A stretch of DNA of 64,000 bases from Octopus vulgaris. Lineage: Eukaryota. Both the position numbers and the translations under genes were made by a program. Below, piece by piece: positions 11,832-58,292 of this stretch (positions are counted from its first letter, which is position 1; every line of letters starts with the position of its first letter). The stretch lies in NCBI GenBank assembly GCA_951406725.2, contig OX597815.1, positions 98,952,001 through 99,016,000 on the forward strand, written 5' to 3'. The notes under the pieces are model-generated. The model was not told the DNA's origin, searched no databases, and saw nothing but the letters and a program-made list of their open reading frames with translations.

Positions 11832-13276
11832 ACATATATGTGTGTATATATATATATATGTGTGTGTGTGTGTGTGTGTGTATGTATATATATATATGTA
11901 TATATATATATATATATATATATATATATATATATATATATATACATATACATATGAATATATATGTGTATGTATATATATATATATATATATATATATA
12001 TATACGTTCGATTGTCAACGGAATCAAAGGACGATAATAAAATGAAAAAATATACGAATGGGAGAAATAAAGAGAGACAAAGGAGAAAGAACGAAATCCC
12101 ATATATATGAATGAAAGATGTGTAGGAAATGCCATAAAATATGAGTATAAACATGAAATGTGCAGAGACATAAAGATCACGTTATATTTTGCATATTCCT
12201 CTCTATGTTCTTCTAGCGTTGTGGTAAATAAATAAACACACACACAGATATATATATACGAGTATACATGTATGTCTATATATATACTTATATATATGTA
12301 TATGTGTGTATGCGTGTATGTATCTACATATATACTTATATATGTATATGTGTGTATCTGTGCGTGTACGTACATATGTGTATTTGTATATATACATACA
12401 TACATGTATACGTAGATATATGCATATAAATACGTATACTTACGTTTATTTGCATGCATGTATGTATGTATTATGGATGGATGGATGGATCGATGGATGA
12501 ATGGATGGATTGATTGATGGCTGGCTGGCTGGCTTGCTGGATGGATGGATGGATGGATGGATGCAAATATACAAGTGTATATAGATACACTTGTGAAAAA
12601 TGTGTACACTAACAACTGTCGTAGATCAGCTTGACGTTTTTCACCAAACTGTACATGTATTTGAGCATCATGCAATTTTGCTAGTATAAAAATTTTCCAT
12701 CTATTTAGTACTTGGTAGATATATCCATTTTAATCTTTCCCTCTGCAAATATATATACATAAATATATATATATACGCACACACACACACACACACACAC
12801 ACACATATATACAAATAGATATATATATATATATACATATACATATATATGTATATAGATATAGATATATAATATATATATATATATATATATATATATA
12901 TATATATGTATGTATGTATATAGATATTCATATATAATATATATATAGATAGATAGATATAGATATACATATATATATATATAATATATATATATATATA
13001 TATATTCGTTTTTTTTACTCCATTGTATTCTGTACGCGAAACCGATTGGTAAGACCAGCCGTGATGGTCTTTCAAATAATATATATATATATATATATAT
13101 ATATATATATATATATATATATATACTTACACACACGGAAGTATTTATATATACGTCCGTGTGTGTGTATGTATGTATATTTATATACATACAAATAATA
13201 CATACATGCATACATTCATTCATACATACATACATACATACATACATACATACATACATACATACATACATACATA
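11832..13276. repeat. Cluster of TA/TG/CA/GGAT/CATA simple repeats
   Basis: Directly visible, with short unique spacers. Confidence 0.9.
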
Positions 13277-14832
13277 AAAACATAGAAGCAAAACTACCAT
13301 GTTGTTGATGTTGAAATTCAAAAAAAGGAGCCTTGAATCTAGGTTAGAACCCGAATCTTTCTCTATTGACAAGAAATAAAACTGAACAATGACATACATA
13401 CTTGGGAATTTTGAAGGAGTATTCTCTTCAAAATATCTTCCAAAAGCAATTTTATCTAGTCCTATATAATGCTTTGAGGTAGAAAATGAAAGTCATGGAA
13501 AATCAGTGGGAGTATCTATCCTGCAGATTACAAATGTCCTCTAAAATCAGGTTAATATTTATACCCAACTGTTTCGAAATTTGGCGCTCCATTTTTATAC
13601 CACTAATCATCAGTTATCATTCTAAATTGAATCTGGAATAGCTAAGATTTCAGACAAAGAAACAAACTGGTTTTCACGCACTTTACAGAGAAAATGTGTG
13701 AGTGAATTATTAAAAAATTATACAAAAATTCTTCTTTGTATTCAGTAAATAACAATTATTCTTGTTACTATACTCCAGTGGTGGAGTTTTATTTTCTGAA
13801 TAACAAACCATCTTCATCCTACAAGAAAAATTCTAATAGACAAAAATGTGATTGATATTTGTACATTATGTTGTTTTGACGAATTCGAGTAACAGGTTAA
13901 CCAGTTCATTGTGCAGCTTAATGTTGGAACTGCGCTCGTTGTAAACTTCTCGTGTAATAAGAATGTTACATTCACAATTTTATTAGATCCTGCAGACTTT
14001 CCTGAGTATGTGCCAACCATTAAATATTATTCTTTGCAATCAATTTAAAAGGTGTTTGCGAATTTTTTCTCCTCTCACTCCCCTGTACTTCGTCAAAAAA
14101 GACCCGCTATGAAAGCTAAAGAGAGAAGTTGCATCGCAACTTGTCTTGGATTTCCTATATCAACCCTGAAAGATGATGTTGAGATTGGTTGATCTTAAAA
14201 TCACGGTGTACAGCGCACAAGCGGAAAGAAATATCCAAACGCATTTCTGCCAATATTTTAGCGAATGTCTGAGTGGTATTCCGTATTTCCTAAAACAATT
14301 ACTCTAAGTGTTGTTCTTTATTATCACCTGAGGGTCTCTCCCGGCGAAAGAGAGTCCATCTATAACTGCATTCGCAAGAATGACAAGTAACGAAGTTTTA
14401 TTTTACACCCGAAATTATTAGCATATACCTACATATCTATCTAGTAATCTCTCTCCCTCCTTCTTTCTTTCTTCCCTTCTCTCTGTCTATATCTCTCCCT
14501 TTCTCTCTGATAAGGGAGCAAATATCAACTCGAATATTTACCGGAGAGATAGGGAGATGAAACATTTACTAGCTTACAGCTACATATGAAAAGTATAACG
14601 ATCAACACGCACTTCTTTCGCCCATTAGAATATCAGTACATTTATCCATACTACATTGAAAGAGAGAGAGAAAGGACCTGAGAGAAAGAGAGGGAATTAT
14701 TTTAACCATGGGCAGGCTCAATACTGTGTCTATTCTTATTAAAAGTACGACTGTAAATTTATTTGTAAAGTTTATTATGAACACACTGTTTGAATGTTTT
14801 TCGTTGGCATGCACATACACACGCATCATGAA

Positions 14833-15044
14833 TAGATAGATAGATAGATAGATAGATAGATAGATAGATAGATAGATAGATAGATAGATAGATAGATAGA
14901 TAGATAGTCAAACAGATAGGTAGACAGAGATAGCTAGATAGATAGATAAATAGATAGATAGATAGACAGATAGATAGATAGATAGATAGATAGATAGATA
15001 GATAGATAGATAGATAGATAGATAGATAGATAGATAGATAGATA
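14833..15044. repeat. (GATA)n microsatellite
   Basis: Directly visible. Confidence 0.95.
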
Positions 15045-16007
15045 ATTTCAAGTAGCAGTATTGATTGGTTGATTTCAACAGGAGGCTTTTTTCAGGAATA
15101 AAATATAAACGAGAAATTTAAAACTATTGACTTTCTTCAAGGTAGAACAAACTTGAAAAGAATCAAAAGAATCAAGGATTTTTTTTTCTTTCCTGAAATC
15201 TTTTACCGAATATCATCATTTAACATCGTTCTGCTTTTAGCAAAATGTATGGCGGTTAAATCTAATTTCATTCGTCGAAGTTAGGGACGTTTCTTGACAT
15301 CCTACTTAATTGTTTTGTAATGTCATGTGAGCAGTCAGAGTGATCATGACATTTTTTCCTTGCTTTTTTTCTAGTCTTATTTTTTATTTTTTATTTTCTT
15401 ACAATGACTTTTCTTTATCGTTATAGTTTTGCTTTTTCTTTTGCGGCTACATTTGACCGTTAACAGTGAGCGTTGGATAATAACCGTAGGTGAGAAAACA
15501 TCTTGCAAATTAATTTGAGGAAAGAATTTACATTTATTCACCTTTGAATGTGGACAAATGTATTATAATAATCTTACTTTTTAGATGTTTTTTTCTTATT
15601 CATTTGATGCAGTAAGAAGGAATTTCAAGACTTTCTAACTAGTGTTTAATAAGTGGTATACTTAGAAAATGCTTTTGGATTTAACTTGTAATTCTACAGT
15701 CTATTTTGTATTTTGCTTCTTTTTTCTCCATTTGTCTATTTAATACGAACAAAGCAAACCCGTTAGAGTTACCATAAATTGTTTTAAGAGACCAAATTCA
15801 ATGTATTACGTTATTTGGGATAATCACAAATCATACGAGAGTCATTTTTTTATTTTTTATTTTTGTATGTTTGTTTTTGAGATCAAAAGAGGAAATAGAA
15901 CGAAGATTTAATACAATGCATTTCATGAATAGTCTACCCTACCTCCAATAAAGTACATGCCTTACAGAAAATGTGTTTGCAGAATCTGCAGAAGAATGCC
16001 CAAAATA

Positions 16008-16815
16008 CGAGGTTCGGCTGAAATGTTCATAGGTTGACTAAGATACTCTCGTGGAATGTGACCAAATGAGGTTTATATTCCGACATTTTCCCTTGCAATG
16101 TATACGATTTTCCATCGGTGTTGAGGAGCTTGGATCCCATTGTTGAAGAAGCTTTCATCCAGTAAATCGAAGAAATTATCAACAGCATATGTGACATCAT
16201 AATCACTGCGATACTGTTTCCCAGCCAAGTGATATTTCATTTCAGGGAATAGATGATAGTGAAATGGAGCCAAATCAGGAGACTAGTGATAGTGATCACG
16301 CAGTGTTAAGCCAGTCACTAACAGCAACCATTTAAACGAAGGTCTTGTGTGCTGGACCGTTGTCCCTATGAACCAAGACACCCTTTATCATTTTTGCTGG
16401 GTATTTGATCTTGATAGCCTTTAGTAACTGCATCATCAAGTTGACATAGTACTCTCCATTGATGCTGTGGCCCTTGCGGAGATAGTCAATACACACAATG
16501 GACTCTGCATCCCAAAACATCACCTTCCCTGCAGATGAAACAACCCTGGCCTATTTTGGAGCAGGTGAGGAGGGTTATGTGCACTGCATGGCTTTTCTCT
16601 TTGTTTCTGGTTCAAATTGATGCACCAAACACTCACCCTGGCTGTGAAAACGTTGCAGGAAACCAACTCTACCTGCCTGAAAACTATGTCAGATTTAATG
16701 TAATCAGCTTGGTACACTTTTGATCAGGTCATTCCAAGTTCATTGTGCAGAAAATTCTCACCTTTTTCGCGGGATATGCCAATAGCACTGACTAGCTGAT
16801 TTATACTCCTCTACG
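16008..16815 (-). mobile_element. Mariner (DD34D-type) transposase relic, C-terminal part with one terminus
   Basis: Minus-strand translations FWDAESIVCIDYLRKGHSINGEYY, HRDNGPAH, (SPD)LAPFHYHLFPEMK and FFNNGIQ...HRWK. Mariner-like terminus ta|cgaggttcggctgaaatgttc at 16008. Stops and frameshifts present. Confidence 0.88.
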
Positions 16816-16829
16816 TATAAAACTCGGAT

Positions 16830-57150: not shown

Positions 57151-57375
57151 AGAATTTTGTATGGTGTTACGCATAAAAATTTGCGGGGTGATTATAATAA
57201 AAAATAAGCAACAAGGATGATTCCGGTAATTTGGTACAATCATTTCATACAACAACATTTAAGTAAAATGTTGTAGTATGAAACGATTGTACCAAATTAC
57301 CGGAATCATTCTTGCTGCTTATTTTTTATTATAATCACCCCGCAAATTTTTATGGGTAACACCATACAAAATTCT
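57151..57375. repeat. Fold-back palindrome (110-bp arms, 5-nt loop) within an insert (about 57064-57400) in (TA)n
   Basis: Arms 57151-57260 and 57266-57375. Additional outer inverted repeat taagatcagcaaaaatttag/ctaaatttttgctgatctta. Confidence 0.93.
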
Positions 57376-57624
57376 AAACACTAAATTTTTGCTGATCTTA
57401 TATATATACATATATATAAGTGAGTATGTGTGTGTGTATATATATTGCGTGTGTGTGAGAGAGAGTGAATGACTGGAAACACGCGAGAAGGGGCAATCCG
57501 CACATTTATTAGGAGTTACATGTATTATTCAAAACAGATTCGGATTCCATGCTACTTCAAATTCCGAAGCCTTTAACGAGGCTTTTCTCGTCAGGCACGT
57601 AAGAATACATACATATATATATAT

Positions 57625-58036
57625 GTTCTCTCTTTTACTCTCTTTTATTTGTTTCAGTCATTTGACTGCGGTCATGCTAGAGCCTAATACTTATTCTATC
57701 GGTCTCTTTTGCCGAACCGCTAAGTTACGTGGACGTAAACACACCACCATCGGTTGTCAAGCGATATTGGAGGGACAAACACAGACACACAAACTCACAC
57801 ACATACACACACACACACACACACACACACACATATATATATATATATACATATATATATATATACATATATACGACGGGCTTCTTTCAGTTTCCGTCTA
57901 CCAAATCCACTCACAAGGCTTTGGTCGGCCCGAGGCTATAGTAGAAGACACTTGCCCAAGGTGCCTGGCAGTGGGACTGAACCCGGAACCATGTGTTTGT
58001 TTAGCAAGCTACTTACCACACAGCCACTCCTGCGCC
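57625..58036 (-). mobile_element. SINE family A, near full-length
   Basis: On the + strand it ends cagccactcctgcgcc (the 5' head). Internal (CA)n(TA)n at about 57795-57873. Confidence 0.9.
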
Positions 58037-58245
58037 TATATATATATATATATATATATATATATATATGTACGTTTAAATATTTGTTGTGCAAGATTTT
58101 TTATGTGAAGTCGTGTGTTGAAACAGATATTGTTGTATTTAGGAATGGTCATTTTGCCAGTTTAGCCAATAAAAACACACGCACTATATATTTGGTGTTA
58201 CTTTGCTTCAGTGTTATTTATTTTTTACATTAATCTTAATCTTAT

Positions 58246-58292
58246 TTCGGTCAGAGTTCTTTCGTCACACTCCTGTGACCGCATCAGTGGTC
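58246..58292 (-). ncRNA. Variant hammerhead-like motif
   Basis: Minus strand reads cca CTGATGCg gtcac-aggagt-gtgac GAAA gaac TC tga. Stem II is perfect, and the core has A9 to C. Confidence 0.45.

Follow-up and report, generated by a model that had tools for sequence, protein, structure and literature searches.

We examined a 64,000-nucleotide stretch of the Octopus vulgaris genome (assembly GCA_951406725.2, contig OX597815.1, positions 98,952,001 to 99,016,000; the window) in which short inserts with hammerhead ribozyme (HHR) motifs are dispersed. These sites are probably the HHR-bearing 3' ends (pseudo-long terminal repeats, pseudo-LTRs), truncated or inverted, of several different families of Penelope-like elements (PLEs). 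The main support is an excess of motifs over chance, a sequence depth that rises toward the 3' end in the two elements designated A and h2, mirror-image arms that belong to individual loci and carry a one-sided tail, a PLE reverse transcriptase (RT) between HHR-like arms, and the style of the HHRs behind two coding relatives, L054 and L055. A scatter of HHR-tipped PLE ends is already known in many animals (2014), and what is seen here is of that known kind. Three loci are solid by statistics:

HHR A, 42054-42100, plus strand: 6-bp helix I extended to a rod of about 50 bp (42002-42148); score 11, with 0.05 expected
Element h2, 42650-43084, minus strand: multicopy, 3' end at a TA run; scan score 10
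Palindromic insertion F, 52761-53094, no single strand: arms within 52761-53038, a tail on the right arm alone, an HHR in each arm (52907-52957 plus, 52892-52842 minus)

A preliminary description, made from the letters alone, had listed 11 arm-level HHR strings at nine loci, and every string was found where it had been placed. Chance was gauged with a strict canonical type I descriptor, a relaxed descriptor and a scored scan, against block-wise dinucleotide shuffles (100) and 200 shuffles; the descriptor p-values are optimistic, because both descriptors were written after the sites had been seen. The strict descriptor returned no site in the window and none in 100 shuffles, and an intact canonical HHR is present at no site in the window. 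The relaxed descriptor returned three (A at 42060 plus, h2 at 42980 minus, F at 52914 plus) against a shuffle mean of 0.32 and a maximum of 2 (n=100). At scores of at least 10 the scored scan found four sites, representing three independent loci (F plus arm 12.5, A 11, F minus arm 10, h2 10), where the null has a mean of 0.10 and a maximum of 2 and none of 200 shuffles reaches four. The expectation that complete HHR folds would outnumber those in shuffled sequence is thus borne out, and a type I core with helices I and II stands above chance in both F arms, h2 and A, the last with one core change. The listed sites fared unevenly: A and h2 pass, site B scores 7.5 (0.74 expected per window) and is not above chance on its own, and the other eight (sites C and D, both arms of E, both PLE arms, h1 and h3) are missed by the scan, whose seven further matches are all at chance level. 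F, the best-scoring site, was absent from the list. The proposed total of about ten sites therefore comes down to three loci by statistics, and to about nine of mixed certainty when B, E, the PLE, D, C and G are added on context.

Some of the listed motifs do look like chance. Halves of the form GAAA-palindrome-UA, read earlier as a signal when isolated, number 40 against 24.4 expected (none of 200 shuffles has 40 or more), so that about 60% of the lone halves, and hence most of that signal, are chance; h1 and h3, both needing G·U pairs, fall outside the 40. Fold energies are weak at seven of eight sites (z -2.2 to +0.4). With about 24 halves expected per window, and with B, C, D, h1, h3 and the PLE arms failing the scan, one could hold that the listed motifs arose for the most part by chance, in DNA rich in AT and in hairpins. 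We regard this as very improbable, since four sites reach a score of 10 where 0.10 are expected, the family letters of E restore its palindrome, and unusual features are common to the window sites and to L054 and L055; for h1, h3 and perhaps C taken individually, chance may be the answer. Helix III forms a fully paired self-duplex in A (-12.5 kcal/mol), h2 (-9.0), the PLE (-8.3), B (-7.0) and F (-0.2), and does not in C.

Sequences differ between sites, as had been described: among 78 pairs of 13 segments only F and G are clearly homologous, and apparent matches of E to D (z 6.6) and of G to D (z 5.8) were rejected as gappy, AT-rich alignments. Self-comparison revealed no direct repeat of at least 30 nt around E, F, G, h2, B, C or D, so these show no unit repeat or terminal redundancy. 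The described association with TA tracts holds in a directed form: at 9 of 10 loci the putative cut is followed by a (TA)4 run no more than 300 nt away, as is true of 25% of randomly placed positions (p about 3e-5, a value that carries the bias of the earlier choice of sites; 2 of 3 for the blind-scan loci alone, p 0.16), whereas undirected nearness to (TA)5 is unremarkable at each site (7th to 54th percentile). Comparison with Rfam, which had been put forward as a check, gave no match of any family at gathering score in the window. There was no hammerhead among 22 matches at E of 10 or less in 41640-43640, nor, window-wide, among the matches listed (150 of 272), which were only microRNA models on microsatellites and hairpins.

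F has an older relative in the window, and the pair bears on how the mirror arms arose.

Palindromic insertion G, 27551-27852, no single strand: older F relative with the same one-sided tail; degenerate HHR, core GUGACCA at 27685 plus

G matches F with an nhmmer E of 1.6e-7, tail included. The two arms of a locus resemble each other more (F 88%, range 88-91%; G 65%) than arms of different loci do (56-61%), and 30 columns of the F/G alignment group the arms by locus, none by side and two crosswise. Because the arms group by locus, the mirror arm was either made separately at each insertion or homogenized later. A different origin of the palindromes, as fold-back or MITE-like DNA elements or as whole copies of masters that were already palindromic, with the likeness to HHRs incidental, might be suspected from the four or five short fold-backs in 64 kb and from the F and G centers, which lie 7-13 nt upstream of the core and within about 6 nt of each other. 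Grouping by locus, the one-sided tail, an F score far above chance (0.005 expected) and the same inverted arms around a bona fide PLE RT make it highly unlikely, and favor inverted PLE ends instead. The F core, GUGAACA, is a G3:C8 variant known as an engineered rescue mutant (PMC11167929). A natural G3:C8 core was not reported in the literature searched, in which one further paper (PMC3884650) mentions G3-C8; Lunse et al. 2017 and the supplements of the 2014 and 2021 papers cited below lay outside that search and may hold one. An 18-mer of F has 53 matches, none continuing as the element and 52 of them without a BLAST match at E of 1e-4 or below; a 29/30-nt match, L032, was rejected as a bacterial-looking coding region, and 35 pattern matches in viral contigs included no relative.

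A profile search recovered only two PLE coding remnants in the window:

Dead Neptune/Nematis-type PLE, 53181-54961, plus strand: RT and thumb at 53975-54700, inverted 278-nt arms that are 97% alike
Separate PLE remnant, 22513-22854, minus strand: Cys linker and GIY-YIG, tblastn E 1e-12 to 1e-18, hmmsearch iE 5e-24

The first bears out the proposed link to PLEs. Each of its arms carries an HHR-like motif (core UUGAAAA, a U3:A8 variant, at 54823 plus; GAAA-GCGC-UA; poor helix I). Its RT is 61% identical to P0003/P0006 over 236 aa, its closest relatives lying at 55-64%, and sequence similarity makes it a probable member of the Neptune/Nematis clade. The relatives, where named mostly from bivalves and their symbiont assemblies, have a C-terminal GIY-YIG domain with a Cys linker (CX2-5CxxC), as do the endonuclease-bearing (EN+) Neptune and Nematis elements (PMC8557442, PMC11167929). 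Unlike EN+ PLEs, the window copy has lost this region, running from the thumb straight into the 3' untranslated region, and contains an in-frame stop. Assignment to Naiad, which has an N-terminal endonuclease, was dropped because the relatives have the domain at the C-terminus, and a selenocysteine reading of the in-frame TGA at 54518 was rejected because it aligns to an Arg codon. The second remnant has no recognizable HHR downstream.

A scan of genome contigs yielded two relatives, L054 and L055, from 12 pattern matches, both with an intact RT-linker-GIY-YIG end. Both of the two fetched have a CUGANGA HHR with palindromic helix III (190 and 146 nt, respectively, after the ORF stop), followed 82-88 nt on by (TA)4, so the same HHR style stands behind the coding regions of the relatives. 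L054 shares a U·U at the base of helix II with A and h2, and because L054 has it, this mismatch is a natural trait rather than decay alone; L055 has the TATA helix III and the UU seen in E and F, with a weak helix I. We note that L054 1-2021 and L055 1-3875 are eukaryote-like Penelope elements inside two GTDB representative assemblies, one of a SUP05 bacterium and the other a Bacteroidota MAG; host contamination is the probable source. L055 has a further reading frame upstream of its RT ORF.

The window inserts resemble the minimal HHRs (min-HHRs) of metazoan PLE pseudo-LTRs as described by Cervera and de la Pena in 2014 (PMC4209133), who find heterogeneous min-HHRs by the thousand in individual invertebrate genomes and attribute these mostly solitary motifs to truncated PLEs; they also report pairs on opposite strands separated by 100-700 bp, a base left unpaired after A9, and a U3-A8 variant. 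Shared with these are a type I fold, a helix III that is palindromic or absent, the many unrelated families, the mostly single and truncated state, the occurrence of pairs on opposite strands, a base that stays unpaired after A9 together with G10.1-C11.1 (F and D) and U3-A8 (the PLE arms); the rod of about 50 bp in helix I of A and the G3:C8 core of F depart from what is described there. Craig et al. 2021 (PMC8557442) describe PLE copies as 5'-truncated, in partial tandems and often with an inverted 5' copy, and Frangieh et al. 2024 (PMC11167929) describe a PLE endonuclease that prefers AT-rich DNA, reverse transcription that starts at two internal sites defining an optional tail, and an anole HHR that cuts only with protein and is dispensable for insertion in vitro. 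Truncation at the 5' end, an inverted 5' copy, a one-sided tail and AT- or TA-rich targets are likewise seen in the window. PLEs are abundant in octopus (PMC8967140, PMC13282606), and in O. vulgaris 31 Penelope-like families have been active recently (PMC13282606). No cephalopod HHR family was reported in the literature searched, although the supplements of the 2014 and 2021 papers and Lunse et al. 2017 may hold such.

Two nested insertions lie beside h2:

Palindromic insertion E, 41645-42371, no single strand: minus arm 41795 to 41645; plus arm 41790-41861, resuming at 42298-42371; min-HHR in both arms
Element A, 41862-42297, plus strand: 5'-truncated copy with terminal hairpin (41862-41998), TA run, second copy (about 42002-42297)

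The plus arm of E, listed as a complete or near-complete fold, is cut within helix III by A (41860-42297) and continues at 42298, A sitting inside the AT-rich palindromic helix III with AATATT on both flanks; this matches the habit of PLEs, described in PMC6765202, of inserting beside existing copies. To the left of E lies a multicopy repeat (41500-41640, depth up to 154k). We compared 41500-43080 with public contigs from 4 of 24 listed runs (X1, X6, X8 and X11) and two source organisms. All three inserts compared, 41645-42371 (E), 41862-42297 (A) and 42650-43084 (h2), are multicopy in contigs of both organisms, as befits dispersed elements and not single-copy sequence; scaled to an exact single-copy contig (depth 57), the HHR bins suggest, to orders of magnitude at best, about 10^3 copies for A, 10^2 for E, 10^2-10^3 for h2 and 10^5 for a SINE-like repeat. 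The family letters of the E minus arm at 41725/41726 (97-100% of depth in X1 and X6) restore the helix III palindrome found in the plus arm, and an insertion variant in the contigs also keeps the hairpin there. For h2, depth in X1 starts at about 6k at the 5' end and reaches 310k at the 3' end, though not monotonically, with X6 similar. The preliminary description took 42916-42929 on the minus strand for an isolated half; it is part of a complete fold (42985-42911) with core CUGACGA at 42980, the U·U at the base of helix II, a long loop II, an 8-nt palindromic helix III and helix I.

A differs from the other inserts in having a period, of 352 nt, shown by an 89-nt direct repeat (41873-41961/42212-42300, 91%). 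It has no ORF (the longest stop-free stretch is 58 aa), a GC content of 42% and a strong fold (z -7.6; z -7.9 for the rod 42002-42148). Its HHR has core CCGAUGA, with U4 changed, the U·U at the base of helix II, a near-palindromic helix III and a putative cut after UC. Depth in X1 climbs 3'-ward through 30k, 103k, 351k and 484k to 600k plus 185k over the duplicated 3' segment, with X6 similar. At the head (42025) it is about 11k, some 2% of the 3' end, and the upstream sequence of most long copies is consequently unseen.

These features bear on the view that most of the inserts form self-standing, non-autonomous families (non-LTR retrozymes or mini-PLEs), dependent on PLE proteins in trans and perhaps spreading via an HHR-cut circular RNA. 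For the set as a whole we judge this unlikely: the geometry of the many distinct short elements, which the preliminary description took to be non-autonomous, is that of truncated copies of autonomous PLEs, and E, F, G and h2 lack a unit repeat. It is likeliest for A alone, which is retrozyme-like where the others are not. A has a period without an ORF, its long helix I would hold the cut ends together, depth is continuous from the HHR into the 3' segment, a contig from an X8 run guessed to be RNA spans 41972-42162 with eight differences and no gap, and a joint from 42213 to 41862 (or 41871) is present in contigs of all four runs. That joint fixes only the family order after 42213, because the window itself holds the segment twice; the version to 41871, tried as proof of A tandems, was rejected on the same ground. 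A tail-to-head bridge is seen in one X8 contig, with 28 letters on the short side against a threshold of 31, and apparently in one X11 contig, to go by depth and end distances; the 298 upstream letters of the X8 contig do not align to 41862-41971. The low-depth coverage of the elements by contigs of the two runs guessed to be RNA has no bearing on expression. A metagenome scan with an A motif gave no match.

Two observations on these contigs may be added. X8 and X11 contigs share letters at 42031 and 42047 that are rare in DNA contigs, and the match of X8 record 26 starts at a CAG after a T-rich run (41972-41974), with 298 unaligned letters upstream. This may be a splice acceptor; introns that end close to helix I are found in some PLEs (PMC4209133).

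Retrozymes, as described by Cervera and de la Pena in 2020 (PMC7229834), are tandem units of 150-450 bp expressed as circles, with mussel units of 350-390 bp, a range in which A falls. A preprint by Li, Clavereau and Pollet (2026; 10.64898/2026.07.22.740005) describes retrozymes as derived from PLE pseudo-LTRs, with cleavage in 1 of 9 dimers. A resembles the animal non-LTR retrozymes of these sources in being non-coding, highly self-paired, 150-450 nt long and 42% GC, with one type I HHR and PLEs in the same genome, and its U·U at the base of helix II recurs in the axolotl HHR_Amex2. Unlike retrozymes it is present in the window as 1.2 units with one HHR rather than as a tandem of at least two, no tandem array occurs in the window, and most of its relatives are truncated. 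A is a real retrozyme candidate, possibly a self-standing non-autonomous unit, although we lean slightly away from its being non-autonomous; it alone merits follow-up as a retrozyme.

Pseudo-LTR ends of PLEs remain the better account of the set, and several points weigh against them. Except in the 53-55 kb element there is no ORF remnant upstream of the HHR sites, which leaves the short inserts with no sequence link to a coding parent. The closed 352-nt period and long helix I of A are unlike the 4-5 bp helix I of PLE min-HHRs. Family letters do not uniformly favor the folds: the one displayed at 42936 breaks a helix II pair of h2, and of the six displayed in the rod of A two improve a pair, two break one, one weakens one and one is neutral in the register of the window, core and partner columns being among 199 rows outside the display; a repair of the rod of A by family letters was accordingly rejected. 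Contig depth, moreover, is not copy number and varies with local divergence, and the copy-number comparison covers three of the nine listed loci (A, E and h2).

The steps by which such ends would have formed are established for PLEs in general and applied to this window by analogy. A PLE protein would nick AT-rich or (TA)n DNA and copy its own RNA from near the 3' end; most copies would stop after 70-450 nt, and the remaining insert, short and non-coding, would retain the HHR in whole or in part and have a TA tract on its 3' side. Frequently the 5' end would also gain a second copy, inverted and tail-less; palindromes E, F, G and h3 would have arisen in this way, as would the arms of the 53-55 kb element. 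We infer that each family has, or formerly had, an autonomous parent. Any self-cleavage is likewise putative: minimal HHRs with a palindromic helix III would cut only as dimers or with the aid of protein, and the window copies have decayed. Mirror-arm HHRs cannot dimerize within one transcript because they lie on opposite strands, and these copies are probably inert.

A bolder combination, in which A is a 352-nt circle-forming retrozyme whose long helix I keeps the cut ends joined and which a PLE enzyme copies into AT-rich DNA, among it the palindromic helix III in the HHR of a different family, while F and G use a natural G3:C8 core whose HHR fold stops the RT and triggers the inverted arm, is conceivable but doubtful. 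If pseudo-LTR ends are the whole story, they extend HHR-tipped PLE ends to another lineage and add new natural HHR variants, with no surprise to the specialist. Should A prove a true retrozyme, and should the F/G fold-back point be linked to the HHR, these loci would offer small substrates for the role of the HHR in the PLE cycle and for the origin of inverted arms.

The weaker sites are as follows:

Site B, 45789-45881, plus strand: CUGAUGA core (45803 plus), degraded long helix II, CAUAUG helix III, extended helix I
Site C, 43268-43331, minus strand: CUGAUGA, long helix II, GAAA, decayed 12-nt palindrome, helix I of at most 3 bp; putative, from sequence only
Site D, 58246-58292, minus strand: A9 changed, unpaired G, 5-bp helix II, GAAA, weak helices III and I; likewise a putative site read from the letters
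h3 fold-back insertion, 57069-57402, no single strand: GAAA-near-palindrome-UA in both arms, arms 94% alike, ends in TA
h1 insert, 13007-13079, plus strand: 73 nt between TA tracts, without a 5' half; no relative in the window

B folds as an HHR-like three-way junction (z -1.2), with a TA tract 34 nt after the putative cut. C and D had been counted among the complete or near-complete folds, a description that fits neither well, given the lack of a convincing helix I in C and the changed A9 and weak helix I in D. Helix II of D is like that of F with a G-C/A-U swap; the similarity of the two segments does not exceed z 2.5, and any homology is putative. An HHR origin is plausible for h3, in which there is no CUGANGA half and the fold-back center stands in place of the 5' half. 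A 29-nt piece of its arm is repeated head-to-tail outside the left arm (57069-57097), and an indel of about 28 nt distinguishes one arm from the other, making this a complex tandem-plus-inversion junction.

The window is otherwise AT-rich eukaryotic repeat DNA (GC 29-43%, 92 (TA)5 tracts) and contains no tRNA in its 64 kb. An 82-nt palindrome at 58976-59057 is CA/TG-rich and 90% complementary, with no HHR motif seen in it. A SINE-like repeat, presumably an octopus SINE, is present in about ten copies by self-comparison and has a depth of 2-10 million in contigs of the DNA runs:

SINE-like repeat copies: 64-480, 1072-1300, 7481-7633, 18630-19078, 42409-42644
SINE-like repeat copies, continued: 44731-44875, 45002-45369, 55976-56076, 57630-58035, 58327-58496

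ORF fragments at 34659-35270 (plus) and 56475-56981 (minus), which have no Pfam support, resemble an RTE-type LINE and a mariner-type transposase. A frameshifted LINE-type RT with a zf-RVT domain lies at 25352-27228 on the minus strand (Pfam E 1.4e-24 and 8.7e-6).

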